A stretch of DNA of 64,000 nt. Origin: an uncultured Rhizobium sp. (GTDB taxonomy: Bacteria > Bacteroidota > Bacteroidia > NS11-12g > UBA955). The notes below the pieces were generated by a model. The model was not told the origin of the DNA and did no database searches. It saw nothing but the letters and a program-made list of their open reading frames with translations. The stretch covers positions 3,452-67,451 of the forward strand of contig CAZBMF010000001.1 in assembly GCA_964492925.1 (NCBI GenBank). Direction: 5' to 3'. This document shows, piece after piece, positions 21,543-62,636 of the stretch. The translations under genes were made by a program, and so were the position numbers. Positions within the stretch are counted from its first letter, which is position 1. Each line of letters starts with the position of its first letter.

Positions 21543-21545
21543 ATA

Positions 21546-37277: not shown

Positions 37278-38577
37278 TTATAAAAACATTCAATCTGATG
37301 ATTTAAAACAAAAATTATCAGAAATTATCTCTCAAAACATTCATCAATCTATTATTCCAGGGCAGCATTATATACCTGTTACTGGAAAAGTATTAGATGT
37401 AGATGATATCTTACACGGTGTAGATGCAACATTAGATGCTTGGTTAACTACAGGAAGATACGCAAAGGATTTTGAAAAAGATTTCGCAGCCTATTTTGGT
37501 AGTAAAGCATCTGTGCTTGTAAATTCAGGATCCTCGGCAAATCTCGTTGCTTTTTACGCTTTAACAAGTCCTAAATTGGGCGAAAGAGCCATTAAACCAG
37601 GCGATGAAGTTATTACTGTTGCTGCAGGATTTCCAACCACAATCAATCCGATGATACAATTTGGTTGTGTGCCTGTTTTTCTCGACATAGATATCCCTGC
37701 TTATAATATTGATGTTACTCATCTAGAGAAAGCTATTTCCCCAAAAACAAAAGCAATTATGATTGCTCATTCTTTAGGTAATCCATTTAATCTTGAAGCC
37801 GTAAAAGCGATTGCTGATAAATATAATTTATGGTTAATTGAAGATGATTGCGACTCATTGGGAGCTACCTATAATGGTCAAAAAACTGGAACCTTTGGTG
37901 ATCTTGCAACTGTTTCATTTTACCCAGCGCATCATATCACGATGGGTGAGGGAGGTGCAGTTTTGGTTAACAATATAAAATTATTGAGACCAGCATGGAG
38001 TTTTAGAGATTGGGGTAGAGATTGTTACTGTGAACCTGGTAAAGACAATACTTGCGGAAGGAGATTTGATTGGCAGTTAGGACAATTACCATGTGGATAT
38101 GACCATAAATACACGTATAGTCATATTGGTTTTAACTTAAAGGTAACTGATACACAAGCTGCAATTGGTTTGAATCAACTGAGGAAGGCCGATCAATTTG
38201 TTGCAAAGCGTCGTGAAAATCATAAAATGTTATATGATTTAATGAAACCTTTGGAAGACTATTTTATTTTACCTGAGGCAACACCAAATTCTAATCCATC
38301 ATGGTTTGGTTTTATGCTAACAGTGAGGGAAGGTTCAAATATTGATCGCAATGAATTGGTAAAATATTTAGAAGAACATAAAATTGGTACCAGATTGTTT
38401 TTTGGAGGAAATATGTTAAAACAGCCGGCCTATGAGCATATTAATCATAGGGTTGTAGGAAGTTTAACAAATTGCGACGTGGTAATGAACCATTCATTCT
38501 GGTTGGGTGTATGGCCTGGATTAAATCAAGAACATTTTGAATATATTGTAAAAACAATAAAAGAGTTTATTGGATGA
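37267..38577 (+). CDS. rfbH: CDP-4-keto-6-deoxy-D-glucose 3-dehydrase (E1, RfbH/DdhC), PMP-dependent with a [2Fe-2S] motif
   Basis: DegT-fold. His replaces the usual PLP-Lys ('[15 protein letters not shown]'). Cys motif C-X-C-X7-C ('[11 protein letters not shown]') matches E1 of the 3,6-dideoxyhexose pathway. Confidence 0.9.
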
Positions 38578-39110
38578 ATAATGCACTCGAGCAAATAACC
38601 GAAGGTTTATACAAAATTAATCATCGATTTGCTGAAGATAACAGAGGAAATTTCACAAAAATTTTTCAGTTTTCTAATTTGCCTATTGAGGATTCATCTG
38701 TTTCATTTGTTGAGAGTTATATAACAGAATCTCATGCCAATGTTATTAGAGGGATGCATTTTCAAACACCTCCATTTGATCATTGGAAATTGGTGACAGT
38801 TTTAAATGGGACTATTGTTGATGTAGTTTTAGATTTGAGAAAAGGAGATGGATTTGGGAAATATTATTCATTTCAATTAGATGAAAATAGTAAATTTTCT
38901 TTATTGATCGCTCCTGGATTTGCCCATGGATTTAAATCAATGGAAGATCATACCAAATTGATATATCATGTATCTTCAGAATATTCGGCACAACATGATT
39001 TTGGTATCCGTTATAATAGTTTTGGTTTTGATTGGAACTGTGAAAACCCGATAATGTCGGAGCGAGATAATAACTTTATACCATTTTCACAATATTTGTC
39101 ACCATTTTGA
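38574..39110 (+). CDS. RmlC-like cupin sugar-nucleotide 3,5- or 5-epimerase (AscE/RmlC family)
   Basis: 178 aa. '[31 protein letters not shown]' and '[12 protein letters not shown]' resemble the dTDP-4-dehydrorhamnose 3,5-epimerase fold. Confidence 0.75.
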
Positions 39111-39943
39111 AAAAAGTACTTATAACTGGCGCAACAGGATTTATTGGGTCAAATTTATTATCGAAGTTACAAGATGAAATAGACATCAGTGTTCTAGCAT
39201 TAAAGAGAAGTAGCTCTTCCGGACCAGTATTCCAATTAAATAAAGAACCAGAATGGTTGAGTTCTGAATTGGAAAATGTGCAATCAGAATCGCTTAAATC
39301 AGTTGAAATATTAGTCCATCTTGCTGCACATTCTGCCAATACTCCATACGATAACTTAGAAAATTGTATCAAGTATAATTATGAAAATCCTATTCTGTTA
39401 TTTCAAAAAGCATACGAAAATGGCATTAAAAGGTTCATCGTAACAGGTACTTGTTTTGAGTATGGTGAGTCTTGTAATCATTATGATTATTTACCTACAG
39501 ATGCTCCTTTGATTCCAAATAATTCATATGCGCAATCTAAAACAATGTTTTTTAATTGGTTAAAGGATTGGTGTGTAGGCAAAGAAATTCAAATAGTATA
39601 TCTACGTTTATTTCAAGTTTTTGGACCTGGTGAACAAAGCTCAAGGTTATGGCCTATGATTATCGATTCTGCTCAACAAAATAAAGACATTATTTTATCG
39701 CCTGGTGAACAGATTAGGGATTTTATTCATGTAAATGATGTAGTTTCAAAAATATTGGATAAGATAAAGGAAGAAAAAGTAAGTTGGGGTCTTTTATCAG
39801 AAAATGTAGGCACCGGACATGGAATTACGGTTCGTGAATTTGTTGAAAGATGGTATAATTCACTAGATGGAAAAGGAAAATTAAAATTCGGCGAATTGCC
39901 TTATAAGCCTGGTGAATATATGAGAATTGTTGCAAAACTTTGA
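39107..39943 (+). CDS. NAD-dependent epimerase/dehydratase-family SDR (putative CDP-4-keto-3,6-dideoxyhexose 4-reductase)
   Basis: 'ITGATGFIGSNLLSKL' Rossmann and the 'YAQSK' YxxxK motif. Position directly after the E1 and epimerase genes. Confidence 0.7.
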   Translation: MKKVLITGATGFIGSNLLSKLQDEIDISVLALKRSSSSGPVFQLNKEPEWLSSELENVQSESLKSVEILVHLAAHSANTPYDNLENCIKYNYENPILLFQKAYENGIKRFIVTGTCFEYGESCNHYDYLPTDAPLIPNNSYAQSKTMFFNWLKDWCVGKEIQIVYLRLFQVFGPGEQSSRLWPMIIDSAQQNKDIILSPGEQIRDFIHVNDVVSKILDKIKEEKVSWGLLSENVGTGHGITVREFVERWYNSLDGKGKLKFGELPYKPGEYMRIVAKL

Positions 39944-47738: not shown

Positions 47739-48847
47739 AATTTATAGACCAAATAAAGCATCATTCAGTTTCGATTCCAGGTTTTCGGACGAAAAAGAAA
47801 TTGGTTGTTATTGAGTCAGACGACTGGGGGTCACAAAGAATACCGAGTAAACAAGTTAGGGATAAATTAATCCAAAATAATTTACTAGACGTTAGAAATA
47901 AGATAAATTTCTTAGACACATTAGAATCTAAAGAAGATTTAATTTCACTCTACGATTGTTTGTTAAAATTCAAGGATAAAAATGGCAATCATCCCATTAT
48001 TACAGCAAATTTTTTGACGGCGAATCCAGATTTTGATAAAATTAAATCCTCTGGATTTACTGAATATTATTACGAAACAATTGATAAAACTTATGCAAAA
48101 AACACGGCAGAAGATTTAAATATGTTGGAGGTGATAAAAGATGGAATGTTGCAAAATATTTTCAGGCCGCAGTTTCATGGAAGAGAACATGTAAATGTTA
48201 ACTTATGGATGAAGCAGTTGAGAAATCAAAATTCCGTATCATCGAAATCATTTGATTCTAGTGTTTATTGCTTAGATGATACTAGTATAAGCAAGAGGTC
48301 AAATTTAATGGCATCTTTTGACTATCAAACAGTTGAAGAAATCGAGGAAATTAACAACATTTTTGTTGACGGATTTCAGCATTTCGAACAATTATTTGGC
48401 TTCAAATCGAAATCTTTTATTGCCCCGTGCTATGTTTGGGGAGAACAACTTGAGAAAACGGCTTTTGATAAAGGGATAAAATTATTTCAAGGTATTTACA
48501 ATCAATATATACCCAATCCACAAGGTGATAAATATCGTTTAAATTGGCATTTTAACGGCGCGCAAAACAAAAATGGCCAATTTTATTTTGTTAGAAATGC
48601 GTTTATGGAATTGTTTGAAAACGATAAAATAGACCATGTAGAGGCTTGCTTAAAACGAATGGAAATAGCATTCACCTGGGGGAAACCTGCCATAATTGGC
48701 ATGCATAGGGTGAATTTTGTGGGTGGTTTGGAAATAAAAAATCGCCAGAATACACAAACCAAACTTGAAGAATTATTTAAAAAAATGTTAAAAAAATGGC
48801 CGGATATTGAATTTATTTCAACCGATCAATTAATCAATTATATTTAA
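47735..48847 (+). CDS. Uncharacterised conserved protein, paralog B of 46632..47738
   Basis: 370 aa. About 30% identity to the upstream ORF and the same motif set. Tandem duplication with a 4-nt overlap. Confidence 0.5.
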   Translation: MKFIDQIKHHSVSIPGFRTKKKLVVIESDDWGSQRIPSKQVRDKLIQNNLLDVRNKINFLDTLESKEDLISLYDCLLKFKDKNGNHPIITANFLTANPDFDKIKSSGFTEYYYETIDKTYAKNTAEDLNMLEVIKDGMLQNIFRPQFHGREHVNVNLWMKQLRNQNSVSSKSFDSSVYCLDDTSISKRSNLMASFDYQTVEEIEEINNIFVDGFQHFEQLFGFKSKSFIAPCYVWGEQLEKTAFDKGIKLFQGIYNQYIPNPQGDKYRLNWHFNGAQNKNGQFYFVRNAFMELFENDKIDHVEACLKRMEIAFTWGKPAIIGMHRVNFVGGLEIKNRQNTQTKLEELFKKMLKKWPDIEFISTDQLINYI

Positions 48848-49965
48848 TGGCATTCGAAAACAAACACATTATTGACTTACAACCTTACAAAGTTGCCAGC
48901 CATAAAATTTGGGAAGTAGATCCAAACGACAGAAACACGGTATTGAAATTAGACTGGAATGAGGCTACAATACCACCGAGTCCGTTGGTGAAATCTAGAA
49001 TCATGGAACTTGTAAGTGAATCTTCTTTTTATCAGTTTTATCCTTCAACTCATAGTGAAACTCTTCTTGCGAAACTTTGTGATTATGCTGGAGTTATGTC
49101 TGATAATCTTCAGTATTTCCCTAGTTCTGATAGCTTACATGAATACATTGCAACTGTTTTTTTAAGTGAAAAGGATACAGTACTCATGTTGGGACCTACC
49201 TATGATAATTTCAGGTTAACTTGTGAATCACATGGTGCGAAATCTTGTTATTTTAATTATGGCGATAATTTTGAATTAAATGAAGGCTTATTTGAGTCTG
49301 AAATTTCAAAATTGAATCCTAAATTGGTGTATATCTGTAATCCGAATAATCCAACCGGCAATTTAATTTCTGAATCTTATATAGAACATTTATTGAGATT
49401 ATTTCCCAATTCATTGTTTCTGATTGATGAGGCGTATACAGAATTTAGTGGGCATTCTGTTAAAGATTTGGTGGTTCAATATGATAACATATTAATCACC
49501 AGAACTTTGTCAAAGGCGTTTGCTTTGGCAAATTTTAGAATTGGCTACTTAATTGCTCCAGCTGAAATCATTAAAAACATATCCAAGATAAGAAATCCCA
49601 AAAACTTTACAACATTTTCACAAGAAGCAACAATTGCTGCGCTTTCAGATGTACAATACATGCGTGATTATGTGGAAAATGTAAAATTGGCAAAAGGGAA
49701 ATTTATTGACTTTCTCAGGGAAAATTATCAGCAAATTCAGCCGTATGATGGATTTGGAAATTTTATATTAATTAAATTTCCTAATGATAATTTGAAGGGG
49801 GCATTTCTGAACCACATGGAAAATAATAATATTTTTCTAAGAAATTTAACTCATAGTTCACTGTTGAATAATTGTTTGAGGATTACAATTGGTACAATTG
49901 AACAAATGCAAATTGTACAAAATAGAATAGCAGAATTTTGGTCAACTTTTCAAACAAAGATTTAA
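48847..49965 (+). CDS. HisC/CobD-family PLP-dependent enzyme (class I/II aminotransferase fold; aminotransferase or phospho-amino-acid decarboxylase)
   Basis: 372 aa. 'VYICNPNNPTGN', 'LIDEAYTEF' and 'ITRTLSKAFALANFRIGY' (PLP-Lys in the SKAF context) are typical of the histidinol-phosphate aminotransferase / threonine-phosphate decarboxylase family. Confidence 0.8.
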   Translation: MAFENKHIIDLQPYKVASHKIWEVDPNDRNTVLKLDWNEATIPPSPLVKSRIMELVSESSFYQFYPSTHSETLLAKLCDYAGVMSDNLQYFPSSDSLHEYIATVFLSEKDTVLMLGPTYDNFRLTCESHGAKSCYFNYGDNFELNEGLFESEISKLNPKLVYICNPNNPTGNLISESYIEHLLRLFPNSLFLIDEAYTEFSGHSVKDLVVQYDNILITRTLSKAFALANFRIGYLIAPAEIIKNISKIRNPKNFTTFSQEATIAALSDVQYMRDYVENVKLAKGKFIDFLRENYQQIQPYDGFGNFILIKFPNDNLKGAFLNHMENNNIFLRNLTHSSLLNNCLRITIGTIEQMQIVQNRIAEFWSTFQTKI

Positions 49966-50624
49966 TTTTATTCGATTTCTGTGAGACGTTGGTAGATTTC
50001 CAAACTGCCGACGCTTACGTTGATTTTGTGAGAAAGAACATTGATTCTCCCAGAATGCAATTTTTGGAATTCACACTGAAATTATTCAAAAAAATTAAAA
50101 TTATTTCCCTCTGTTACAAATTTTTCCCTAATAAATCAATTGAAAAGAGATTGAAATTGTATCAATTGAAAGGATTAAACGAAATTATTTTAAAAGATTT
50201 AGCTGGTTTATTTTATTCTTTAGAAGTAAAACCAAATTTAATACCAGAAACCCTTGAATTAATGAATGACTGTATAAAAAAGAACTGTGAAGTAGTTCTA
50301 ATTTCAGGGGGATATTCAATATATCTGCAACATTTTTGTAATGAATATCATATTAAAAAATTATACTCTACTGATGTAGCCTTTAGTGAAAATAAATGTA
50401 GTGGTAAAATATTGGGTTTAGATTGTTTGTTTGAGAATAAAGTAACTTTGATTGAAAATGGAGGATTAAACCTTAGTGACTATGAAACAAAAGTCGTGTT
50501 TACCGACAGTTCATCAGATCTTCCTTTACTTAATTGGGCCGATAAAGGTTTCGTTATTTCTAAAAATATTCCACAATCTTGGGCTACAGAGTTAAATTTT
50601 GAACAAATAATCTGGAGAAAATGA
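49938..50624 (+). CDS. HAD-superfamily hydrolase (putative phosphatase)
   Basis: TTG start. N-terminal motif I 'LILFDFCETLVDF'. Later 'VVLISGGY' (motif II-like) and 'VFTDSSSDLPLL' (motif IV-like). Confidence 0.55.
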   Translation: MVNFSNKDLILFDFCETLVDFQTADAYVDFVRKNIDSPRMQFLEFTLKLFKKIKIISLCYKFFPNKSIEKRLKLYQLKGLNEIILKDLAGLFYSLEVKPNLIPETLELMNDCIKKNCEVVLISGGYSIYLQHFCNEYHIKKLYSTDVAFSENKCSGKILGLDCLFENKVTLIENGGLNLSDYETKVVFTDSSSDLPLLNWADKGFVISKNIPQSWATELNFEQIIWRK

Positions 50625-51559
50625 AACAAATATTTAGAGAATTAAAGTATAAAGGTATTTTTGGTTTTTACTTGTATATATTCATTGTTAAAGTATATAA
50701 AATTTGTGTCAATTATTCTATTTCCGATCGAAAGTATATCAGTCGTAAATTTAAATTTTATCATGGTTACGATTTAAATTGGAATAAACTTGAAACACTC
50801 AATGAAAAAATGCAGTGGTTTAAAATTTACGATCGTAATGAGCGTTATGTAGCTTTGTCTGATAAATTTAAGGCGCGTGATTTTTTTAAAAATAAATTTG
50901 GCGAAGAATATTTAGTGCCTTTGGTGTTAGAAACACAATGCGTTGAAGATTTGAATTTTGATAATTTTCCAGATTATCCGGTAGTTGTTAAAGCCAATCA
51001 CGATTCTGGTAATTATCGCATTGTTAGAGATAAAAATGAAATTGATTTTAGAAAACTTCAAGTTGATGCCAAAGCTTGGTTGAAATTCAATTATTATTGG
51101 GAAGATCGTGAATGGCCTTACAAGCATATTGAACCAAGAATTGTGGTTGAAAAAATGCTTCAAACCAATGAAGGTAAAATCCCAAACGACTATAAATTGA
51201 ATTGTTTTAATGGAAAAGTGGAATTTGTGTATGTATCTGTAGATCGTGAAGGTATTAATAAGAGAAATATTTACAGCAGGGATTGGGAGCCATTATATTT
51301 TACTTGGAATAAAAAATATTACGATCACAGCAATCTAAGAGGACCTGAAATTAAAGCGCCATCTACTTTTGCGAAAATGATTGAATTTGCTGAAATCATT
51401 GCCAAGGATTACCAATATGTGCGGGTGGATTTTTATGATGTAGATGGACACTTATATTTCGGTGAAATTACGCAATACCATGGCGGTGGATTTGATCAAA
51501 TGTTGCCCAAAGAATGGGATTATAAATTTGGTAATATGATATCAATAAATGCCGATTAA
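50621..51559 (+). CDS. TupA-like ATP-grasp amidoligase family protein
   Basis: 312 aa. 'LNEKMQWFKIYDRN', 'EEYLVPLV', 'WEDREWPYKHIEPRIVVEKML', 'NDYKLNCFNGKVEFVYV' and 'VRVDFYDVDGHLYFGEITQYHGGGF' match the family signature as I recall it (ATPgrasp_TupA). Confidence 0.65.
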   Translation: MKQIFRELKYKGIFGFYLYIFIVKVYKICVNYSISDRKYISRKFKFYHGYDLNWNKLETLNEKMQWFKIYDRNERYVALSDKFKARDFFKNKFGEEYLVPLVLETQCVEDLNFDNFPDYPVVVKANHDSGNYRIVRDKNEIDFRKLQVDAKAWLKFNYYWEDREWPYKHIEPRIVVEKMLQTNEGKIPNDYKLNCFNGKVEFVYVSVDREGINKRNIYSRDWEPLYFTWNKKYYDHSNLRGPEIKAPSTFAKMIEFAEIIAKDYQYVRVDFYDVDGHLYFGEITQYHGGGFDQMLPKEWDYKFGNMISINAD

Positions 51560-53495: not shown

Positions 53496-54677
53496 ATGAA
53501 AAATCTCAGCATACTCATTATATCGGTGTTTGGTAAGGTTAGGGAAGAGAGTAACGATAGGGTGAATAATTTGTATGATTTTTCTCCTTTTAAAACTAAA
53601 AAAATTGTAACCACTAATTTTAGTCATCACAACAAAGCCAAAAGGGTTGGTGAAGATATTCGAAATGTAGACTACATAAATGTCCCTCAATATTCAAAAA
53701 ACTTGAGTTTAAAACGGATATTTAGTCATTGGGTTTTTGCGATAAAGCTATATTTTTATTTAAGAAAACTAACCGATAAACCAGATATCATTTATTGTGT
53801 TTTGCCTACTCCTAGCTCAGGATACATTGCGGGTTTATATGCCAAGAAACACAACATTACGTTTGTTACAGATGTAATTGATGTGTGGCCTGATGGATTA
53901 TTTCCCATAAATTCAACCTTTAAAAAACTGCAGTTTTTGTTTAAACCTTGGGAATTGTTATCGGCTAAGGTCTATAGAATGTCTGACTTTATATGTGCTG
54001 CAAATCGAAGTTATGCTAAAATTGCCCGACAATATGTAGGGAATATTCCTGTGAAACATTTTTATCTTGGCACAAGTTTTGATGAAGATGAAAATAAAAC
54101 CACCCAGTTAACGAAAATTACAAAGCCCGATGGAGAAATTTGGATTGCTTATGGTGGAAATTTAGGGCATTTATATGATTTTGATTTGATGATTGATGGA
54201 ATAGTGGAAGCTGCAAAAATGACACAAAAGAAATTGCGATTTCTGTTGGTTGGAGGAGGTGTTTTAGAAAATGATCTAAGACAAAAACTGGCGTTAGTTA
54301 GTCATATCGAATACACAGTAACCGGGAATGTTGGTTATAATGAATTTATGGATTACATGCGAAGCAGCGATATCTGTTTGAATATTTTTAAATCAAATGC
54401 ATTAATTTCAATGAGTTACAAGCTCTATGATTATTTTGCTGCAAAAGCATTTGTTATCAATAATTTAATTGGCGATGCCGATGAAATTATTGATGAGTTT
54501 GAAGTTGGATATACCGTAAATCAATCAAATTTTAGTTCTAAACTTGCTCATGCAATTGAACAATTACCGGAATTTGAGAAACACAAACAAGAAAAATTTA
54601 AAAAAGTGTACGACTTATTAGATCGTAAGAAAATTATACAATCAATCTACCAATTTATACAAAATGAAAACCGTTAA
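53496..54677 (+). CDS. Glycosyltransferase family 4 (WbuB-like)
   Basis: 'ISMSYKLYDYFAAKAFVINNLIGDADEII' EX7E-like region and an N-terminal GT-B Rossmann half. Confidence 0.7.
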   Translation: MKNLSILIISVFGKVREESNDRVNNLYDFSPFKTKKIVTTNFSHHNKAKRVGEDIRNVDYINVPQYSKNLSLKRIFSHWVFAIKLYFYLRKLTDKPDIIYCVLPTPSSGYIAGLYAKKHNITFVTDVIDVWPDGLFPINSTFKKLQFLFKPWELLSAKVYRMSDFICAANRSYAKIARQYVGNIPVKHFYLGTSFDEDENKTTQLTKITKPDGEIWIAYGGNLGHLYDFDLMIDGIVEAAKMTQKKLRFLLVGGGVLENDLRQKLALVSHIEYTVTGNVGYNEFMDYMRSSDICLNIFKSNALISMSYKLYDYFAAKAFVINNLIGDADEIIDEFEVGYTVNQSNFSSKLAHAIEQLPEFEKHKQEKFKKVYDLLDRKKIIQSIYQFIQNENR

Positions 54678-55302
54678 ATTTGACTCTCAAAAACTTAACT
54701 TTAAAGCTAAATTCGAACAATTTTTGAATTTGGGATTACTCGAAAATTTAAATCTTGAAATTGAGGTTTTAAAACGTGAAAATGATCAAAAAACTCCAAT
54801 CCATAAGGTTTATTATGAGTGGGCTAGAACAGAAGAATTCCAGGCTTTATATTTGGAATTATTAAGAGATTACGTGAAGCCTCTTTATGGTGGTGAACAA
54901 ATTGTGTTTCAAAAAATTCCAACATTTAGGGTGGCATTCCCTCATAATATTGCCGTTGGTGAGTTTCACAAAGACAAAGCCTACAGAGACTTATCATGGG
55001 CAGAACAAGTAAAAGAAGACAATTTTTATTTGCCGTTTACAGACGCATTTGATACCAACACTATATGGGTAGAATCTGAAGAAGATAAAGGCGATTTTGC
55101 TCCAATGAATTGTGAGTATGGATGCACCATTCAATGGGATGGAAGCAATTTAATGCACGGTAACAAAATCAATGAAACAGGAAAAGCGCGCGTTAGCGTT
55201 GATTTTAGGGTTATCAAAATGTCGAATTATGTGCCAAGCACCAAAGGTTCTATCAACATGAATGTTGGTTTTGCAATTGGTGGATACTACGATGTCATCT
55301 AA
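54664..55302 (+). CDS. Hypothetical protein (possible cupin / Fe(II)-2OG-oxygenase-like HxD...H triad)
   Basis: 212 aa. 'GEFHKDKAY' (H-x-D) and a downstream 'SNLMHGN'. No secure family assignment. Confidence 0.35.
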
Positions 55303-55918
55303 TTCTGTCTCAAAAATTTTGTACTTGTTTATCAAATCATTCTTTGATTTTGTTTTTGCTTTTATTCTTTTTACGTTCTCCATTCCAATTTGGTTGTGGT
55401 TGTTGATTAAGTTTAAATTTGACTTAAAAAAAATTATTTTTCTTCAACCAAGACCAGGTAAAAATGGGAAAATATTCAATCTTATAAAGTTTAAAACTAT
55501 GACCGATGAAAAAGATGAAAACGGTAAACTTTTGCCGGATAGATTGAGGTTGACATCCTTTGGAAGGTTTCTTCGTGCTTCTTCGTTTGATGAATTACCA
55601 CAAATGATCAATGTTATGATGGGTGATATGAGTTTAATAGGTCCGAGGCCGCTTTTGGTATCATATTTGCCTTTGTATAATGAACGACAAATGAGAAGAC
55701 ATGAGGTGAAACCGGGTATTACAGGATGGGCCCAAATAAATGGAAGAAATGAACTTTCTTGGACCGATAAATTCGAACAAGATGTATTTTACGTTGAAAA
55801 TATATCGTTAAAATTAGATTTGAAAATATTTTGGGGAACAATTTTAAACGTTGTCTCTCGTCAAGGTATCAGTGGAGAAGGAACTGAAACAATGACACCA
55901 TTTACAGGAAATAATTGA
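55292..55918 (+). CDS. Undecaprenyl-phosphate sugar phosphotransferase, small monotopic PglC/WecP-like initiating transferase
   Basis: N-terminal re-entrant helix '[31 protein letters not shown]'. '[17 protein letters not shown]', '[21 protein letters not shown]' and '[13 protein letters not shown]' are canonical Bac_transf motifs. Confidence 0.85.
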
Positions 55919-56568
55919 TCATGATGAAACCAATTTTAATTTATGGCGCTGGGGGTTTTGGTAAAGAAGTTGCTTGCTTAATCAATGAAATTAATGAAAT
56001 TGAACCCACATGGGAAATTTTAGGTTATATCGACGATGGAGTTAATCCGGGTACCGAAATTAAATATGGCAGTGTTTTGGGGGGATTGGATTATTTGAAT
56101 CAACAACCTTCCGAAATTGCTGTCGTTTTTTCAATTGCCAATGCCATTATTTTGGAAAAAGTTGTCTCTAAAATTACCAATCCGTTGGTCTATTTTCCCA
56201 ATATTATATCGCCAGGGGTAAAGTTTTATGACACTCCTTCCTTTCAACTTGGACGCGGAAATGTAATTTCAAATGGTTGCAGATTTAGTTGTGACGTGAA
56301 AATTGGCGATTTCAACCTCTTCAATGGCTTTGTGGCATTAGGTCATGATGTTCATGTTGGAAGTTTCAATATTTTTAGTCCCTCTGCTAGATTGTCTGGT
56401 TCAGTATTTGTGGGGGACAAAAACTTCTTCGGGGTGAATTCTATTGTACTGCAAGGTATTAAAATTGGCAATCATACAAAGATTGGTGTAATGAGTGTAC
56501 TGATGAAAGATACAAAAGATGGATATTTGTATTTCGGAAATCCAGCACGAAAATTAACAGAACAATGA
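55915..56568 (+). CDS. NeuD/PglD/WlbB-family sugar N- or O-acyltransferase (LbH)
   Basis: '[17 protein letters not shown]' N-terminal Rossmann-like domain followed by hexapeptide repeats ('VGSFNIF...[28 protein letters not shown]'). Confidence 0.8.
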
Positions 56569-57632
56569 GTTTTTTAAACATTTCAAATGTTAAAATTGCA
56601 GGAATTGCCTCCTGTGTCCCTCAAGAAAAAATTGAGAATTTAAATGCTGCAATTTTTGATTCACCAGAGGAAGCGCAGCGATTTGTAGATACAACAGGCA
56701 TTAAAAAACGACGTGTAGTTGGCAATCAGCGAATTTGTACATCTGATTTGTGTGTTCAAGCGGCAGAAAAATTGTTGTTGGAATTAAATTGGTCAAAGGA
56801 GGAAGTTGATTGTTTAATTTTTGTAACGCAAACACCGGATTATATTTTACCAGCCACTTCGTGCATCATTCAAAACAGGTTGGGATTGTCTAAAGATTGT
56901 TATTCTTTGGATATATCTTTGGGTTGCAGTGGATGGGTTTATGGATTATCGGTTATTGCATCTTTGATGCAAAGTGGCATGTTTAAAAAGGGTTTATTGC
57001 TTGTTGGCGATACAACCACGGTTACCAAATCGGCCAAAGATAAAAGTACCTTTCCGCTATTTGGGGATGCTGGTACTTGCACATCGTTGGAATTCCAACA
57101 AGGTGCTGCGAATATGTATTTTCATTTCGGTACCGATGGGTCTGGTTTTGAATCTATTATGATCAAAGATGGTGGATTTAGACATCCATTTTCGGAAGAG
57201 TCATTAAAAGAGAAAGAATTTCCTAATGGAATCATTAGAAATGACTTACAAAGTATATTGAATGGTGCAAATGTATTTACTTTTGGCATTGGAAGGGCAC
57301 CAAAATCTGTTAAAGCATTGTTGGAAAAGTTTGATTTAGAGCTAGAAAACGTTGATTACGGATTGTTTCATCAGGCAAACATGATGATGAATGAAAAAAT
57401 TCGAAATAAACTTGGCTTGAGCCCAGAAAAAGTACCTTATTCAATTGATGAATTTGGGAACACATCTTCGGCTTCAATTCCGTTAACCATGAACTATAAA
57501 TTGTCTGAAAATTTGAAAAACAGCAAAAATAAATTCATTGCGTGTGGTTTTGGTGTGGGATTGTCGTGGGGAAGTGTTTATTTTGAAACAGATAAAATTA
57601 TTTGTCCTGAAATTCAGGAATATAAAAATTAA
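56565..57632 (+). CDS. 3-oxoacyl-ACP synthase III (KAS III / FabH-like), copy 1
   Basis: Catalytic triad contexts 'GCSGWVYGL' (Cys), 'HQANMMMNE' (His) and 'FGNTSSASIPL' (Asn). Confidence 0.85.
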   Translation: MSFLNISNVKIAGIASCVPQEKIENLNAAIFDSPEEAQRFVDTTGIKKRRVVGNQRICTSDLCVQAAEKLLLELNWSKEEVDCLIFVTQTPDYILPATSCIIQNRLGLSKDCYSLDISLGCSGWVYGLSVIASLMQSGMFKKGLLLVGDTTTVTKSAKDKSTFPLFGDAGTCTSLEFQQGAANMYFHFGTDGSGFESIMIKDGGFRHPFSEESLKEKEFPNGIIRNDLQSILNGANVFTFGIGRAPKSVKALLEKFDLELENVDYGLFHQANMMMNEKIRNKLGLSPEKVPYSIDEFGNTSSASIPLTMNYKLSENLKNSKNKFIACGFGVGLSWGSVYFETDKIICPEIQEYKN

Positions 57633-57636
57633 AAAA

Positions 57637-57864
57637 ATGGAACAAAACTTTATTAAACTTTTTGCAGAAACTTTAGAAATTGAAGATAGAGAAATTTCTT
57701 TAAACGATACATTTAGAGATTACCCTGAGTGGGATTCATTGGCATTACTTTCGGTAATTGCCATGATAGATGATGAATATGATGTGATCATCGAAGGCAA
57801 TGATTTTGCTGAATTAAAAACAATTGGCGATTTGATTGAAGCCATTCAAAAAGCAAAAGAATAA
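57637..57864 (+). CDS. Acyl carrier protein (dedicated, locus-associated)
   Basis: 75 aa, acidic. Phosphopantetheine-attachment context 'YPEWDSLALLSVI' (DSL). Confidence 0.8.
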   Translation: MEQNFIKLFAETLEIEDREISLNDTFRDYPEWDSLALLSVIAMIDDEYDVIIEGNDFAELKTIGDLIEAIQKAKE

Positions 57865-57865
57865 T

Positions 57866-58924
57866 TTGGCAATATTAAAATTTAACGGTGTTGGAATAAC
57901 GGCAATGGCTGGTGCTGTTCCGAAGAACATTGTTAAAAATTTGGAATATACCACCTTTTTCAACGAGCAAGATGTTCAAGAAATCGTTGAAAAAACAGGA
58001 ATATTTGAAAGGAGATTTGCTCCTGAAGGAATGTGTGCAAGCGATTTGTGCTTTGCAGCGGCAGAACAGTTAATCTCAGACAATAAGATTGACAAATCTG
58101 AAATAGATTTGCTCATTTTTATCTCTCAGACGGCTGATTTTAGGATGCCGGCAACTGCTATACTTTTACAAGATAGGTTGGGACTGTCGAAATCCACAAT
58201 GGCTTTTGATATAAGTTTGGGCTGTTCAGCGTTTGTTTATGGTTTGTCGGTGGTTTATTCTTTGATGGAAAGGAGTGGTTTCCGAAAAGCTTTAATTTTA
58301 GACGGTGAAACACGTTCAAGAATTTACCATCCTAAAGATCGAAAGACGGCTTTTTTATTTGGGGATGCTGGAGTTGCAGCTTTAGTAGAAAGGGATGAGA
58401 AATTTGGAGATAGCTTTTTCTCTTTGGGAAGCGACGGTTCCAAATCTCAACTAATTTCGATGAAAGCGGGAGGCTATCGATATCCGAGTAGCGTTGAAAC
58501 TTTAACGGAAAAGGTGATTGATGAGTTTGGCAATATATCAACTGATGAACATGGAAGAATGGATGGTGGAGAGGTGTTTAATTTTGTTTTGAAGGAAATT
58601 CCAAGCCATGTAAAAGAATTACTGTTGGAATCGAAAATGAGTCAAGATAGCATTGACTTTTTTGTATTTCATCAAGCCAATTTGTTTATGAATGGTTATT
58701 TGCAAAAAAAGTTCAAAATTGAAGATTCGAAATTTCCATTATCAATAAGCAAGTTTGGAAATACTTCTTCCGTATCTATACCCTTGACCATTGTAAGTGA
58801 GTTAAAAAACAAATTATCGGGTCACAATCAATTGTTGTTATGCGGATTTGGAGTGGGTATGAGTTGGGCAAGTTGTGTCATAAACACGAATGAAATTAGA
58901 ATATCTCAATTATTAGAAATATGA
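57866..58924 (+). CDS. 3-oxoacyl-ACP synthase III (KAS III / FabH-like), copy 2
   Basis: 'GCSAFVYGL', 'HQANLFMNG' and 'FGNTSSVSIPL'. Start is uncertain: TTG at 57866 directly after the ACP stop, or TTG at 57836 overlapping the ACP. Confidence 0.8.
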   Translation: MAILKFNGVGITAMAGAVPKNIVKNLEYTTFFNEQDVQEIVEKTGIFERRFAPEGMCASDLCFAAAEQLISDNKIDKSEIDLLIFISQTADFRMPATAILLQDRLGLSKSTMAFDISLGCSAFVYGLSVVYSLMERSGFRKALILDGETRSRIYHPKDRKTAFLFGDAGVAALVERDEKFGDSFFSLGSDGSKSQLISMKAGGYRYPSSVETLTEKVIDEFGNISTDEHGRMDGGEVFNFVLKEIPSHVKELLLESKMSQDSIDFFVFHQANLFMNGYLQKKFKIEDSKFPLSISKFGNTSSVSIPLTIVSELKNKLSGHNQLLLCGFGVGMSWASCVINTNEIRISQLLEI

Positions 58925-59688
58925 GTCATCCATTTGATTTAACAGGTAAAAGAATATTGGTTACAGGCGCTTCATCGGGAATTGGAAGGGCCGTTGCAAT
59001 TGAATGCAGCAAAATGGGTGCTGAGATGATTTTGCTTGGTCGAAATGAAGAAAGATTACAGGAAACATTATCACAATTGACTCAAGTTAGCGGAAATCAT
59101 CATTTTTTTTCGATGGATTTATCTGGAGAATTGAATTTTGAACTTTTACAAAATTTAATTGATACAACTGGTAAACTTGATGGATTGGTAAATTGTGCTG
59201 GTATTACTTCAACATTACCAATCAAAAGCATTACAAAGAAAAGGCTCACGGAAATTTTTGAAATCAATGTATTCGGTGCTATTGAAGTTTCTAGGTGGTT
59301 TACAAAAAAATCGGTTGTTAATGAGGGTGGTGGTTCCATTATTTTCATGACTTCTATCATGGCAAATGTTGGTGAAGTAGGTAAAACTTTGTATTCAATG
59401 TCTAAAGGGGCATTGTTGTCAGGAATGAGGTCGATGTCATTGGAGCTGGCGCCAAAAAAAATTAGGGTAAATGCAATTTCACCGGGTGTAGTTTATACAC
59501 CAATGGTTGAAAATGGTGTGTATGCACAAGACCCTAAATTATTTGAAAATGTATTGATGAAACATCCATTAGGCATAGGTGAAGTAAATGATGTTGCGAA
59601 TGCAGTTGTTTATTTTATGAGTGATGCATCAAAATGGGTTACAGGCACCAATTTTATCATTGATGGTGGCTATACTGCCGGTAAATAG
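58921..59688 (+). CDS. SDR-family 3-oxoacyl-ACP reductase (FabG-like)
   Basis: 'VTGASSGIGRAVA', 'NCAG' and 'YSMSKGAL' (YxxxK). Confidence 0.85.
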   Translation: MSHPFDLTGKRILVTGASSGIGRAVAIECSKMGAEMILLGRNEERLQETLSQLTQVSGNHHFFSMDLSGELNFELLQNLIDTTGKLDGLVNCAGITSTLPIKSITKKRLTEIFEINVFGAIEVSRWFTKKSVVNEGGGSIIFMTSIMANVGEVGKTLYSMSKGALLSGMRSMSLELAPKKIRVNAISPGVVYTPMVENGVYAQDPKLFENVLMKHPLGIGEVNDVANAVVYFMSDASKWVTGTNFIIDGGYTAGK

Positions 59689-59940
59689 GCAATTTGTTAT
59701 AAAATGTTATACGTTTAACACATCTTTTGAACATTATTCCTCGTTAATATTAAAAACCGAGAATTAACTTTGTGTTCACAAACAAAATGATGTCATTCAC
59801 TAAAGAAAGTACAAAATTAAAGTTTGGCAAGGTTATTGTTTCATTGAACACAAATATGAAAATCTTAAACTTAATCAGCAATTTGAATTCGCAACTAAAT
59901 ATGGCGAAAATGGAATTGATTGATTTCTTCAATTATACTT

Positions 59941-61146
59941 ATGGCACTCAAGAATCTTCTCAAAAATAAATTAAACTTAAAATCAATTGAATTAGAATCT
60001 GAAGTTGGTAATGCTACTTCAGAGAGAATTTGGCTATCATCTCCGCACATGAGTGGCGATGAACAGAAATACATTTCTGAAGCATTTGCAACCAATTGGA
60101 TAGCCCCTTTAGGATCTAATGTTGATGGTTTTGAAAATGACGTTTGTGAATATACTGGAGCAAAGCATGCTGCTGCATTGTCGTCAGGTACAGCTGCCAT
60201 TCATTTGGCTTTAAAATTGTGTGGTGTAGGTCAAGACGATTACGTAATTTGTCAAAGTTTTACTTTTGTAGCTACTGCAAATGCAATTTTGTATGAAAAG
60301 GCTATCCCAATTTTTGTAGATTCTGAATCTGATACTTGGGGAATGGATCCCAAATTAATGGAAAAAGCCATTTTACATTGTATCTCTTTGGAGAAAAAGC
60401 CAAAAGCAATCATTCCCGTTCATTTATATGGTATGCCTGTAAAAATGGATGAAATCATGGAAATCGCGAACAAATACAAAATCCCCGTAATTGAGGATGC
60501 GGCCGAAGCTTTGGGCTCTACAATTAATGGTAAAAAGTGTGGAACTTTCGGCGATTATGGTGTTATTTCATTCAATGGAAATAAAATCATCACCACTTCA
60601 GGTGGAGGTATGTTATTGTCGGATTCAAAAACAAGAATTGAAAAGGCCAGATTTTTAGCCACTCAAGCAAGAGATATTGCTCCACATTATCAACATAGTG
60701 AAATGGGTTTCAATTACCGTATGAGTAATGTATTGGCTGGTATTGGTCGTGGACAAATGGAAGTAATTGATCAAAGGGTTCAACAGAGAAGGGCCAACTT
60801 TGAATTTTACAAAGAGGCTTTTTCGGAAATTCCTGGAATTTCATTTCTTGAAGAACTATGTGATTATAAGAGTAATAGATGGTTAACCATCATACTTGTA
60901 GATCCAAAGTTAACAGGTGGTATAACAAGTGAAAACTTAAGGTTGGCATTAGACGCTGAAAATATTGAATCACGTCCTTTGTGGAAACCAATGCATATGC
61001 AACCTTTGTTTGAAAAACATCCTTATTTTGGGAATGGTGTAGCTATGAAATTGTTTAAAACTGGACTTTGTTTGCCTAGTGGGAGTAATTTAAGTAAAGC
61101 AAACTTGGAAAGAGTTGTAAATGTAATCAAAGCACAACTTAAATAA
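59941..61146 (+). CDS. DegT-family PLP-dependent aminotransferase, PglE/WecE-like (nucleotide-4-keto-6-deoxy-sugar 4-aminotransferase)
   Basis: 'RIWLSSPHMSGDEQKYISEAFATNWIAPLG' is the classic N-terminus. PLP-Lys context 'VISFNGNKIITTSGGGMLLS'. The ATG at 59941 is preferred to the TTG at 59920. Confidence 0.85.
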   Translation: MALKNLLKNKLNLKSIELESEVGNATSERIWLSSPHMSGDEQKYISEAFATNWIAPLGSNVDGFENDVCEYTGAKHAAALSSGTAAIHLALKLCGVGQDDYVICQSFTFVATANAILYEKAIPIFVDSESDTWGMDPKLMEKAILHCISLEKKPKAIIPVHLYGMPVKMDEIMEIANKYKIPVIEDAAEALGSTINGKKCGTFGDYGVISFNGNKIITTSGGGMLLSDSKTRIEKARFLATQARDIAPHYQHSEMGFNYRMSNVLAGIGRGQMEVIDQRVQQRRANFEFYKEAFSEIPGISFLEELCDYKSNRWLTIILVDPKLTGGITSENLRLALDAENIESRPLWKPMHMQPLFEKHPYFGNGVAMKLFKTGLCLPSGSNLSKANLERVVNVIKAQLK

Positions 61147-61205: not shown

Positions 61206-62636
61206 ATGTCAATTAATAAAACTGCAATTGTAATAGGTGCTGGTCCGGCAGGTTTAACCGCTGCATATGAACTAGCAAAAAAAGGTGCAAAGGTTACTGT
61301 TATAGAGTCTACGGGGTCTGTTGGCGGGATGGCAAAGAGTTTTGAACTTTTTGGCCAAATTGTGGATTGTGGTCCACATCGATTTTTTTCAAGCGACAAG
61401 ATTGTGAATGATTTGTTTCATGAAATCGTTCAGGATGATTATACATTAGTAAACAGACTTACAAGGATATATTATAAAAATAAATTTTTTGATTATCCTT
61501 TGAAGTTGGGCAATGTACTCAAGAATTTAACACCAATTGAAATTATAGGAATCCTTTGGAGTTATGCAGTACAACGGGTATTTGGCAAAAAGAAATTAGA
61601 AACATTTGAAGACTGGGTTACTGATAAATTCGGAAAACGATTGTTTCAAATGTTTTTTAAAACTTACTCTGAGAAATTATGGGGAATTAGATGTGATCAA
61701 ATTGACTCTGATTGGGCCGCACAACGTATCAAGAAACTATCGTTATATGAAGCAGTGAAAGCTGCAATTTTTGGCAATAAAGGCAATAAACATAAAACAT
61801 TAGTTGATCAGTTTGCTTATCCTAAAAATGGAACAGGTGAAGTTTATGAAAAAATGGCTTCAGCCATCGTGAAAATGGGCGGCAACATTATTTACAATAC
61901 CAAAATTGCTTCGATAAATGTAGATAATCAAAAGAATATCACATCAGTTGTTGATGCAAATGGACAAGAATATTTGGCTGATCACTATATTTCAACTATG
62001 CCTTTAACCCTTTTGCTACAAGGAATGTCGGTCATTGATCAGAAGGTATTAGAAACATCTAAAAAGTTATATTTTAGAAATACAACTTTGGTTTACTTAG
62101 AAATTGATTCAGATAAATTATTCCCTGATAATTGGATTTATGTGCATTCTCCAGAGGTAAAACATGGTCGTATAACCAATTTTAGAAACTGGTGTCCAAC
62201 GATTAACAAAGATAAAAACACCACAATTTTATGTTTGGAGTTTTGGAGTTTTGATCATGAAGAACTTTGGGGATATTCAGACGATCAATTAACTGAATTG
62301 GCATCAAAGGAAATACGAACATTGAACTTAATTAACCGTGATGCTGAAATTTTAAATACTGCAGTGGTTAGAATTCCAAAATGTTATCCAGTTTATGAAA
62401 CAGGATATATGGATAATTTACAACCTGTAATTGATTATTTGAAGGAATTCAACAACTTACATCCAATTGGAAGGTATGGTTCGTTTAAATACAACAACCA
62501 AGACCATTCTATTTTGATGGGAATTTTAATAGCCAGACAACTTGAAACTGGAAGAGATCAAAAATTGTGGGATATCAATACAGATTCTGATTACCAAGAA
62601 GAAACTGAGATAAACCTAACTGGTTACAACGTGTAA
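61206..62636 (+). CDS. FAD/NAD(P)-binding oxidoreductase (amine-oxidase / protoporphyrinogen-oxidase-like fold)
   Basis: 'IVIGAGPAGLTAAYELAKKGAKVTVIESTGSVGG' dinucleotide-binding motif. 476 aa. Confidence 0.65.
   Translation: MSINKTAIVIGAGPAGLTAAYELAKKGAKVTVIESTGSVGGMAKSFELFGQIVDCGPHRFFSSDKIVNDLFHEIVQDDYTLVNRLTRIYYKNKFFDYPLKLGNVLKNLTPIEIIGILWSYAVQRVFGKKKLETFEDWVTDKFGKRLFQMFFKTYSEKLWGIRCDQIDSDWAAQRIKKLSLYEAVKAAIFGNKGNKHKTLVDQFAYPKNGTGEVYEKMASAIVKMGGNIIYNTKIASINVDNQKNITSVVDANGQEYLADHYISTMPLTLLLQGMSVIDQKVLETSKKLYFRNTTLVYLEIDSDKLFPDNWIYVHSPEVKHGRITNFRNWCPTINKDKNTTILCLEFWSFDHEELWGYSDDQLTELASKEIRTLNLINRDAEILNTAVVRIPKCYPVYETGYMDNLQPVIDYLKEFNNLHPIGRYGSFKYNNQDHSILMGILIARQLETGRDQKLWDINTDSDYQEETEINLTGYNV

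Follow-up and report, generated by a model that had tools for sequence, protein, structure and literature searches.

Which acyl group might be made, and onto which sugar might it be placed, by a surface-polysaccharide locus that encodes its own acyl carrier protein (ACP), two beta-ketoacyl-ACP synthases III (KAS III) and a ketoreductase (KR) among amino-sugar genes? A sequence-only reading had proposed that condensation and ketoreduction, never followed by dehydration, yield a short hydroxyacyl-ACP from which the 4-amino group of a bacillosamine-type sugar is acylated. We followed this up in the window, the whole 64-kb stretch of DNA analysed, with Pfam and NCBIfam profile searches for domain assignment, comparison with solved structures and a census of related loci. 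As far as sequence goes, the proposal was supported; the choice between a C6 and a C4 chain leaned on analogy of gene content.

A seven-gene cluster in a polysaccharide locus

In the list of open reading frames (ORFs) of the window, seven genes lay on the + strand between 55.3 and 61.1 kb, mostly with overlapping stop and start codons:

55292..55918 (ORF open from 55262), + strand: PglC-type monotopic phosphoglycosyltransferase (Bac_transf, E 1e-56)
55921..56568 (ORF open from TTG 55915), + strand: PglD/NeuD-family left-handed beta-helix N-acyltransferase (PglD_N and Hexapep)
56565..57632, + strand: KAS III-1 (cluster c7), 355 aa (ACP_syn_III and ACP_syn_III_C)
57637..57864, + strand: dedicated ACP, 75 aa (PP-binding, E 5e-11)
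57836..58924, + strand: KAS III-2 (cluster c2), 362 aa from a TTG start (ACP_syn_III and ACP_syn_III_C)
58921..59688, + strand: SDR ketoreductase, 255 aa, FabG-like but not FabG (adh_short_C2, E 2e-53; KR-domain match)
59941..61146 (ORF open from 59920), + strand: PglE-type PLP aminotransferase (DegT_DnrJ_EryC1, E 2e-96)

The contiguous block from acyltransferase to reductase was thus as first read. The span given for it, 55915–61146, does not include the PglC gene, whose start lies near 55292. From the PglC gene through the KR gene the packing was operon-like, with stop/start overlaps or gaps of at most 4 nt. Gene callers run on identical metagenome contigs placed the starts of the acyltransferase, ACP and PglE genes at 55921, 57637 and 59941. 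KAS III-2 must start at or near TTG 57836 rather than ATG 57905, since the alignment of NCBIfam NF006829 (beta-ketoacyl-ACP synthase III) begins at residue 18 of the 362-aa form, upstream of that ATG. As claimed, dehydratase and enoyl reductase genes were absent: neither a hotdog dehydratase nor a FabI/FabK-type reductase was found among ORFs of at least 60 aa between 50 and 64 kb.

The cluster occupies the sugar-tailoring end of a locus for a surface polysaccharide of the Wzx/Wzy type. Wza and Wzc genes were located at 31–34 kb, and the polysaccharide locus ended before folA at 62.7 kb. Metagenome contigs are the sole record of the source organism, an uncultured Bacteroidota-like bacterium.

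Condensing enzymes, carrier protein and sugar enzymes

Both KAS III retained the complete Cys-His-Asn triad that had been noted for them (C121/H269/N299 in KAS III-1, C130/H279/N309 in KAS III-2), in an alignment that included an E. coli FabH sequence and whose columns were anchored on the motifs of that sequence. The two shared 41% identity. The ACP carried a DSL motif with Ser34 as the phosphopantetheine attachment site, and the reductase a TGASSGIG motif and the catalytic pair Y158-x3-K162. The sequence-only reading had allowed for ordinary housekeeping copies. Every one of these proteins scored below the curated equivalog cut-offs: KAS III-1 reached 225.6 (cut-off 249) and 190 (cut-off 292) on FabH models, KAS III-2 248.4 bits (cut-off 249) and 217.6 (cut-off 292), the ACP 30–42 bits on AcpP models (cut-offs 66–84) and the reductase 162 on FabG models (cut-off 222). 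The nearest PDB entries of KAS III-1 were 4efi and 3gwa, not E. coli FabH. The KAS, ACP and KR are non-housekeeping proteins.

The acyltransferase matched PglD_N (38 bits) and Hexapep (35 bits) and scored 142 bits on TIGR03570 (NeuD/PglB/VioB), under the cut-off of 160.8. Among solved structures the best match was 4m9c (E 3e-23), which we take to be A. baumannii WeeI, followed by PerB, VioB, LpxA and PglD; nucleotide-linked 4-amino-4,6-dideoxyhexoses are the substrates of the transferase's nearest relatives of known structure. With C. jejuni PglD, WeeI and PglB-ATD (4m98) it has in common the PglD_N domain, the left-handed beta-helix and the catalytic histidine, which is the invariant His142 of a GHD motif (numbering of the 215-aa product from 55921).

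The flanking sugar enzymes proved to be true relatives of the PglE and PglC types named at the outset, and clear homologues of the C. jejuni PglF-PglE-PglD-PglC pathway to undecaprenyl-PP-diNAcBac. The PglE homologue matched C. jejuni PglE best (1o61/4ztc, E 1e-105), and is predicted to be the source of UDP-4-amino-4,6-dideoxy-GlcNAc (UDP-QuiNAc4N). The PglC homologue matched N,N'-diacetylbacillosaminyl-1-phosphate transferase best (8e37/8g1n, E 9e-65).

Related cassettes in other genomes

The census, anchored on acyltransferase homologues of 50–84% identity, comprised 80 species genomes from Flavobacteriales, Chitinophagales, Cytophagales, Bacteroidales, Chlorobiaceae and other taxa. An ACP, KAS or KR gene adjoined the acyltransferase gene in all 80 loci. 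About 22 loci had two KAS, in the order acyltransferase-KAS[c7]-ACP-KAS[c2]-KR, and 20 had one, in the order acyltransferase-ACP-KAS[c2]-KR; the remainder were mostly variants in which an AMP-dependent adenylating enzyme appeared as a replacement or an addition. In loci of types A and B the KR gene came after the KAS gene; Flavobacterium paronense and Ferruginibacter paludis are among the type-A organisms. A PglC homologue lay immediately upstream of the acyltransferase in most loci, and PglE homologues (56–88% identity) lay downstream of the cassette in many, with a PglF-like gene (about 640 aa) coming next in some. The triad was conserved across the cassette KAS, with Cys and His in 108 of 108 and Asn in 107, the exception being an ORF cut by a contig end.

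KAS[c2], the cluster of KAS III-2, was common to one-KAS and two-KAS cassettes, and KAS[c7] was the extra condensing enzyme of the latter. The assignment of initiator and elongator is not clean, because a few loci (L017, L018, L025, L061 and L072) had a c7-like enzyme and no other KAS. The acyltransferases of two-KAS loci were monophyletic (23/23) and formed an exclusive clade across phyla, which suggests a transferase fitted to the acyl product and a cassette that travels as a unit. The constant linkage of acyltransferase and cassette, the discrete cassette types and this exclusive clade are what is new here.

The proposed N-acyl sugar and its alternatives

Taken as a whole, the following eight-step scheme is the likelier account of the locus: the initiating sugar would be a 4-N-(hydroxyacyl) 2-acetamido-4-amino-2,4,6-trideoxy-D-glucose (bacillosamine/QuiNAc4N). 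Its core, in which a short hydroxyacyl chain is assembled on the ACP and then joined to N4 of QuiNAc4N, is highly probable; that the chain is specifically the C6 3,5-dihydroxyhexanoyl group is favoured by a narrower margin, by analogy of gene content. A UDP-GlcNAc 4,6-dehydratase encoded elsewhere (a PglF-type enzyme was absent from the entire 64-kb window) and the PglE homologue would supply UDP-QuiNAc4N (step 1). Housekeeping AcpS and FabD would convert the dedicated ACP to its holo, malonate-loaded form (step 2), an assumption made because the locus encodes neither FabD nor a phosphopantetheinyl transferase. KAS III-2, the proposed initiator, would condense acetyl-CoA with malonyl-ACP to acetoacetyl-ACP (step 3), which the SDR would reduce to 3-hydroxybutanoyl-ACP (step 4). 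KAS III-1 would then condense this chain with a second malonyl-ACP in the proposed C4-to-C6 extension (step 5), and the same SDR, proposed to act on both the 3-oxo-C4 and the 3-oxo-C6 intermediate, would form 3,5-dihydroxyhexanoyl-ACP (step 6). The PglD-like acyltransferase is predicted to take the acyl group directly off the ACP and attach it to the 4-amino group of UDP-QuiNAc4N (step 7), and the PglC homologue to load the finished N-acyl-bacillosamine-1-phosphate onto undecaprenyl phosphate (step 8).

Classic KAS III enzymes use acyl-CoA primers and normally catalyse only the first condensation, and the elongation of a 3-hydroxyacyl-ACP by a KAS III is an assumption of the scheme. FabG products have the (3R) sense. 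The dihydroxyhexanoyl group was (3S,5S) in three of three known cases (PMC12024518). On this reading both centres have the same sense, as one reductase acting twice would be expected to give, and a sense opposite to that of FabG would explain why a dedicated reductase is needed and how the chain escapes dehydration by FabZ.

The interpretation is not new: the cassette is a further example of the gene set for which Cisar et al. (2019; PMC6519341) proposed, as a hypothesis, the same roles in Flavobacterium psychrophilum (wfpB-G/pglE). Strains with such gene content carry 3,5-dihydroxyhexanoyl-QuiNAc4N as the O-antigen reducing-end sugar, and strains without those genes are antigenically different (PMC6519341). 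In a 2026 preprint, the roles of these genes are still "attributed", without enzymology. The R1-group locus (wfpB-wfpG and pglE/pglF) shares PglC, two KAS III, ACP, FabG-like reductase, PglD homologue and PglE with the cluster described here, and its ACP (76 aa) and PglD homologue (about 216 aa; PMC6519341) are close in size to ours (75 and 215 aa). The predicted logic is alike in both: a type-II-FAS-like route to 3,5-dihydroxyhexanoyl on a dedicated ACP, transferred to UDP-QuiNAc4N as the initiating sugar. The KAS (333 and 350 aa, 33% identical to each other) and KR (242 aa) of F. psychrophilum differ from those here (355, 362 and 255 aa; 41%). Its gene names run KAS, ACP, KAS, KR, acyltransferase, with the acyltransferase last (wfpG) and not first as here. 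The likeness is one of gene content; F. psychrophilum was absent among the top matches in homologue searches. Its locus contains pglF and rml/fnl genes, whereas the remainder of the locus here includes a CDP-glucose-derived 3,6-dideoxyhexose-type pathway.

The best-surviving alternative, though an improbable one, is that the product stops at C4. The second KAS would then be redundant, select another primer (e.g. propionyl- or another acyl-CoA) or act as a malonyl-ACP primer/decarboxylase. Confinement to the first condensation is the normal KAS III role, some cassettes have a KAS[c7]-type enzyme and no other KAS, and among the N-acyl groups of 4-amino sugars none is nearly as common as 3-hydroxybutanoyl (PMC12024518). 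Yet the complete one-KAS cassette of 20 loci should be enough for C4, a different acyl product is suggested by the exclusive acyltransferase clade of two-KAS cassettes, both KAS here keep the full decarboxylative-condensation triad, and the sole chemically characterised organism with two KAS, ACP and KR makes the C6 dihydroxy chain.

Slightly less probable still is another short polyketide-like N-acyl group: 3-oxo-5-hydroxy- or 5-oxo-3-hydroxy-hexanoyl, a chain of at least C8 from an iterative KAS, or one modified by neighbouring gene products. A single KR would have to serve two keto groups, and a 2OG-oxygenase-like ORF (54664–55302) and an FAD amine-oxidase-like gene (61206–62636) flank the cassette. 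In Imperialibacter, type-A loci have an additional KR and an additional acyltransferase, which shows that the chemistry can vary. Nevertheless, F. psychrophilum makes the fully reduced 3,5-diol with a single KR, and both flanking genes lie outside the conserved cassette, since among census relatives the oxygenase-like ORF had a counterpart only in the closest one (L007) and the FAD gene only in L007, L008 and, weakly, L019.

It is quite unlikely that the transferase is an ordinary acetyl-CoA-dependent PglD making diNAcBac, with the ACP, KAS and KR given over to some other purpose, for instance a lipid, another sugar or O-acylation. In favour of this, the solved structures nearest to it belong to acetyl-CoA-dependent N-acetyltransferases, and it is of the size of PglD/WeeI, with no extra ACP-docking domain. 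Against it, the match to C. jejuni PglD was weak (E about 1e-6), the TIGR03570 score fell below the cut-off, and the operon holds no other acyltransferase to unload the ACP. Whereas acetyl-CoA is the donor in the C. jejuni pathway, the transferase here is genetically locked to the cassette; functional unrelatedness is hard to explain given 80/80 adjacency and an acyltransferase phylogeny that tracks cassette type. Chance presence of housekeeping fatty-acid genes is effectively refuted: although the families are those of FabH, AcpP and FabG, all members fell under the curated cut-offs, E. coli FabH was a distant match (E about 1e-28, vs 1e-67 for the FabH-like 4efi), fabD, fabF and fabZ were absent near the cassette, the genes are packed between PglC/PglD-like and PglE genes, and the cassette recurs in polysaccharide loci across many taxa.

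The proposed N-acylation has parallels elsewhere. LpxA and LpxD are likewise hexapeptide-repeat enzymes that move a 3-hydroxyacyl chain directly from ACP to a UDP-amino sugar, but they differ in terminal-domain organisation and use C10–C16 chains from housekeeping FAS, with no dedicated ACP. LpxA was the second-best family match of our transferase (C-terminal half, E about 1e-11); this similarity did not extend beyond the repeats and may be a generic one. Among acyl-CoA-dependent sugar N-(3-hydroxybutanoyl)transferases, FdhC of Acinetobacter, a GNAT-fold enzyme, uses 3-hydroxybutanoyl-CoA from general metabolism without an ACP/KAS cassette, and its outcome is of the kind proposed here, with a nucleotide-linked amino-dideoxy sugar bearing a short 3-hydroxyacyl group in amide linkage.

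Gene content of the cassette

The window carries a further, metagenomic example of a known, biochemically uncharacterised cassette for sugar N-acylation. The sequence-only reading had placed a hydroxyacyl N-acylation cassette at 55915–61146, consisting of a contiguous acyltransferase, KAS III, ACP with a DSL site, second KAS III and FabG-like reductase, with PglC- and PglE-type genes at its flanks. This gene content was confirmed by the ORF listing and profile searches. The placement of the block held, while the PglC gene had been left out of the span and start codons were slightly refined:

55262–55918, + strand: PglC-type phosphoglycosyltransferase, single Bac_transf domain, ~200 aa (start at 55292 in the gene calls of identical metagenome contigs)
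55915/55921–56568, + strand: PglD_N plus hexapeptide acyltransferase (Pfam profiles)
56565–57632, + strand: KAS III-1 (ACP_syn_III and ACP_syn_III_C)
57637–57864, + strand: ACP, 75 aa (PP-binding; DSL with Ser34)
57836–58924, + strand: KAS III-2 (ACP_syn_III and ACP_syn_III_C)
58921–59688, + strand: SDR ketoreductase (TGASSGIG; Y158-x3-K162)
59941–61146, + strand: DegT/PglE-type aminotransferase, after a 250-bp gap

All genes were encoded on the + strand and most of their stop and start codons overlapped. Within the block, the one larger intergenic stretch (59689–59940, ~250 bp) lay between the reductase and PglE genes; some gene callers placed a 60-aa ORF there (59787–59969). Scans of 54.5–63.4 kb yielded 28 promoter-like sites (36 expected) and 7 terminator-like sites (4.4 expected), none of them above chance, and no convincing promoter or terminator in the reductase–PglE gap.

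The KAS III domains of both synthases scored above the Pfam cut-offs, and the two proteins shared 41% identity. As proposed, both kept a complete Cys-His-Asn triad in the alignment (KAS III-1: C121/H269/N299, KAS III-2: C130/H279/N309), the triad columns being anchored on motifs of an E. coli FabH sequence. The acyltransferase matched PglD_N (38.3 bits, cut-off 23.4) and Hexapep (35.4 bits, cut-off 27). Its His142, within a GHD motif, was invariant among 19 homologues and aligned under the 'aHD' His of 4m9c. Since its score on the NeuD/PglB/VioB model TIGR03570 (142.3 bits) did not reach the cut-off of 160.8, we regard it as a divergent subclade of that family. The ACP had a PP-binding score of 43.1 bits (cut-off 20.8). 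Neither a dehydratase nor an enoyl reductase appeared among the ORFs of 60 aa or more between 50 and 64 kb, again in agreement with the earlier claim.

The ACP had also been taken to be dedicated, and the scores of the synthases, ACP and reductase set all of them apart from housekeeping copies. Both KAS III fell below the FabH models TIGR00747 (KAS III-1: 190.1, KAS III-2: 217.6, cut-off 292.1) and NF006829 (225.6 and 248.4, cut-off 249). The ACP reached 30–42 bits on the AcpP equivalog models, against cut-offs of 66–84, and is thus a specialised ACP; the reductase likewise scored under the FabG cut-offs. The nearest solved structures of the synthases were the FabH-like 3-oxoacyl-ACP synthase entries 4efi and 3gwa (E 1e-60 to 1e-67), with E. 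coli FabH a distant match (E ~1e-28 to 1e-33). Because a PDB search with the reductase returned no match at E 1e-35 or better, no stereochemistry was inferred for it from a close structure.

Predicted acceptor and comparison with Flavobacterium psychrophilum

The best solved relative of the aminotransferase was C. jejuni PglE (1o61/4ztc, E 1e-105, residues 29–396); its nearest NCBIfam model was TIGR04181 (LegC family, 402 bits, cut-off 420). The phosphoglycosyltransferase was closest to the diNAcBac-1-phosphate transferase PglC (8e37, E 9e-65, full length). For the acyltransferase, the best structural relatives were 4m9c (E 3e-23), followed by perosamine N-acetyltransferase and VioB, all N-acetyltransferases for nucleotide-linked 4-amino-4,6-dideoxyhexoses. 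These nearest solved relatives support UDP-QuiNAc4N (the nucleotide-linked form of 2-acetamido-4-amino-2,4,6-trideoxyglucose, a bacillosamine-type sugar) as the predicted acceptor and point to the acylated sugar as the putative initiating residue. A PglF-type UDP-GlcNAc 4,6-dehydratase was absent from the 64-kb window in tblastn searches with three PglF-like queries of ~640 aa (from the related loci L029, L064 and L010), which matched only the CDP-glucose 4,6-dehydratase (23–27% identity). A PglF-like gene lay within 9 kb in only 14 of 80 related loci (the best 80 of 463 relatives), so a distant location is common and a nearby copy is not strictly defining.

In F. psychrophilum, the same gene set has been assigned to making and transferring the 3,5-dihydroxyhexanoyl group of QuiNAc4NR (Cisar et al. 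2019, PMC6519341). There, wfpB encodes a PglC homologue, wfpC and wfpE two KAS III (333 and 350 aa, 33% mutual identity), wfpD a 76-aa ACP, wfpF a 242-aa FabG-like reductase and wfpG a 216-aa PglD homologue, and pglE and pglF complete the set; a type-II-FAS-like route with transfer from the ACP was explicitly invoked, and strains that have other genes in place of this set are antigenically different (PMC6519341). Like the R1-group genes wfpC–G (Table S1 gene list), the window holds two distinct KAS III, a stand-alone ACP, a 3-ketoacyl reductase and a PglD-like acyltransferase in one contiguous block, embedded with PglC-type and PglE genes in a polysaccharide locus. Unlike in the wfp set, pglF has no copy in the 64-kb window. 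Since F. psychrophilum proteins were not among the best 120 homologues of the acyltransferase or KAS III-1, nor among the best 80 of the 463 loci, the predicted membership in a wfpC–G-type cassette was judged by gene content and context only.

A 2026 preprint goes no further than citing the wfp roles as the earlier authors' attributions; it also describes additional ACP/KAS gene sets from other serotypes. The enzymology had been called essentially uncharacterised, in keeping with our literature searches, which found none for the roles of wfp-type cassettes. For a characterised ACP-dependent PglD-like enzyme, or an ACP/KAS cassette for 3-hydroxybutanoyl sugars, they turned up the 2019 F. psychrophilum paper alone. 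As far as sequence evidence reaches, the interpretation in the sequence-only reading is supported and sound, and it restates a published hypothesis.

Related cassettes and a possible route

The acyltransferase was aligned with diverse homologues, and a scan of species-representative genomes gave 463 relatives, the best 80 of which (50–84% identity) were kept. In all of these 80 loci, the acyltransferase gene adjoined ACP, KAS or reductase genes as far as the contig extended. The 108 cassette KAS were clustered by sequence, with KAS III-1 of the window representing cluster c7 and KAS III-2 cluster c2. The catalytic Cys and His were kept in all 108, the Asn in 107.

Three main architectures were found among the best 80 of 463. 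Type A, the arrangement of the window (acyltransferase–KAS[c7]–ACP–KAS[c2]–reductase), occurred in ~22 loci, with hosts including Flavobacterium paronense, F. aciduliphilum, Ferruginibacter paludis, Imperialibacter, Chlorobiaceae and Bacteroidales MAGs. Type B (20 loci) was limited to acyltransferase–ACP–KAS[c2]–reductase. Type C (17 loci) combined acyltransferase–KAS[c1] with an AMP-dependent adenylating enzyme, a GNAT-like ORF (both recognised by sequence, without profile search) and reductase–reductase–ACP. In further types, an adenylating enzyme adjoined the ACP. The 23 type-A acyltransferases, including that of the window, formed an exclusive clade in a neighbour-joining tree, with hosts from several orders and a second phylum.

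The c1 variant cassette was located ~700–6000 bp downstream of the acyltransferase match at loci L020, L021, L026, L033, L039, L041–L043 and L051–L054. Its KAS III was divergent, with Arg at the FabH Phe87 position, and was followed by a ~525-aa adenylating enzyme (TSGSTGxPKG), a ~278-aa GNAT-like ORF, two SDRs and an ACP. This variant presumably builds a different N-acyl group. In four Imperialibacter loci (L058, L059, L068 and L073; 9–15 kb), type A was extended to acyltransferase–KAS–ACP–KAS–reductase–reductase–acyltransferase, the additional genes encoding a second reductase and a second, distant PglD-like acyltransferase (32–33% identity). The closest relative in the genome collection, L007 (CAZYBT010000001.1), shared 78–93% identity with the window throughout the cassette and the flanking sequence. 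Its record carries the label 'uncultured Rhizobium sp.', probably through a MAG binning or taxonomy error; L008, with the same arrangement, is labelled Bacteroidetes, and the related loci were mostly from Bacteroidota.

Taken together, the adjacency in the census, the acyltransferase clade and the kept KAS triads indicate that the acyltransferase clade is functionally tied to an ACP-borne acyl donor and matched to a particular acyl-building module, and that the cassette travels as a unit.

In type B, KAS[c2], reductase and ACP form a complete minimal module; type A has KAS[c7] in addition. Read most simply, the two-KAS cassette would follow a six-step route to 3,5-dihydroxyhexanoyl-QuiNAc4N. 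KAS III-2 would initiate by condensing acetyl-CoA with malonyl-ACP, and the reductase would convert the product to 3-hydroxybutanoyl-ACP. KAS III-1 would then extend this with a second malonyl-ACP, and the same reductase would yield 3,5-dihydroxyhexanoyl-ACP. The PglD-like enzyme would move the dihydroxyhexanoyl group to N4 of UDP-QuiNAc4N, after which PglC would start the repeat unit. The ACP would be loaded by the housekeeping enzymes FabD and AcpS.

F. psychrophilum, Litorimonas taeanensis and V. cholerae O100 all carry the (3S,5S) form of the dihydroxyhexanoyl group (PMC12024518). By CIP rules, both centres would have the same spatial sense, opposite to that set by FabG (3R), which fits one dedicated reductase acting twice. 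FabG forms the (3R) product, and FabZ and FabA act on (3R)-hydroxyacyl-ACP, which would explain the survival of the hydroxyls. Four points weaken the route. KAS III enzymes are mostly primed with CoA esters, a habit from which elongation by KAS III-1 would depart, and a c7-like KAS was the sole KAS in a handful of loci. The loading step of the ACP is an assumption, and the acyltransferase had no obvious ACP-docking domain.

In F. psychrophilum and V. cholerae O100, the N-acyl groups of bacillosamine-type sugars determine the serotype and act as vaccine epitopes, and we know of no characterised enzyme for making the 3,5-dihydroxyhexanoyl group or for transferring it. The window itself leaves this picture unchanged; what adds to it is the census. 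New are a PglD-like clade invariably linked to an ACP (in the best 80 of 463 relatives), a widespread cassette with discrete one-KAS, two-KAS and adenylation-type architectures, and an acyltransferase phylogeny that follows architecture. A candidate, testable rule for chain length is that one KAS gives C4 and two KAS give C6. As a broader reading, which we hold tentatively and just short of probable, the cassettes may constitute a modular ACP-dependent system for varying the 4-N-acyl group on the initiating bacillosamine of surface polysaccharides in Bacteroidota, Chlorobiaceae and others. Within this reading, the acyltransferase would belong to a large, unrecognised PglD-like clade taking the acyl group directly from a dedicated ACP, not from acyl-CoA. 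The interchangeable modules would be one KAS, two KAS, or KAS with an adenylating enzyme, GNAT and two reductases, and the window would represent the two-KAS (C6 diol) module, with a reductase of S rather than FabG-type R specificity. Cultured sources of the cassette include Flavobacterium paronense, F. aciduliphilum, Ferruginibacter paludis, Cecembia lonarensis and Bacteroides luti.

Surrounding polysaccharide locus

The cassette closes a ~30-kb polysaccharide locus with a G+C content lower than that of the upstream flank. Besides glycosyltransferases, a MatE-like flippase and an O-acetyltransferase, the locus encoded:

31.0–34.2 kb: Wza and Wzc
35446–39943, + strand: CDP-glucose pathway, five genes

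The five genes encoded a glucose-1-phosphate cytidylyltransferase (TIGR02623, 426 bits), a CDP-glucose 4,6-dehydratase (TIGR02622, 455 bits), an RfbH-type 3-dehydrase (NF011936, 701 bits), an RmlC-like epimerase and a short reductase/epimerase. The block looks like a CDP-3,6-dideoxyhexose pathway of the ascarylose/paratose/tyvelose type; it held no recognisable separate E3 (RfbI/AscD) reductase. At 48847–51559 (+ strand), a HisC-like class I/II aminotransferase, a HAD-family hydrolase and a TupA-like ATP-grasp enzyme in a row suggest a second, amino-acid-type glycan decoration.

Two neighbours of the cassette were considered as members and rejected, being kept only in the closest relatives. 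A 212-aa ORF directly upstream of the PglC gene and overlapping it (54664–55302, + strand) had no Pfam match and a weak score on TIGR04324, 'sporadic carbohydrate cluster 2OG-Fe(II) oxygenase' (41 bits, cut-off 150); among the best 80 of 463 relatives it was kept only in L007 (93%). Between PglE and folA (61206–62636, + strand) lay an FAD amine-oxidase-like oxidoreductase gene (NF005548, 556 bits, cut-off 389; model product name 'hypothetical protein'). Its position was kept in the closest relatives L007 and L008 (83–89% identity), with a weak 33% match after PglE in L019; the gene's place may be in the conserved flank, outside the cassette.

A second sugar-nucleotide set lay outside the main locus, with unrelated genes in between (20412–23833, + strand), and comprised a DegT-family aminotransferase, a UDP-glucose/GDP-mannose dehydrogenase and a 327-aa NAD-dependent epimerase/dehydratase. 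For the acyltransferase translated from its TTG start, an exact-match look-up gave no entry. An identical reductase protein of the cassette, in the same gene arrangement, was present on contigs of several metagenome assemblies.
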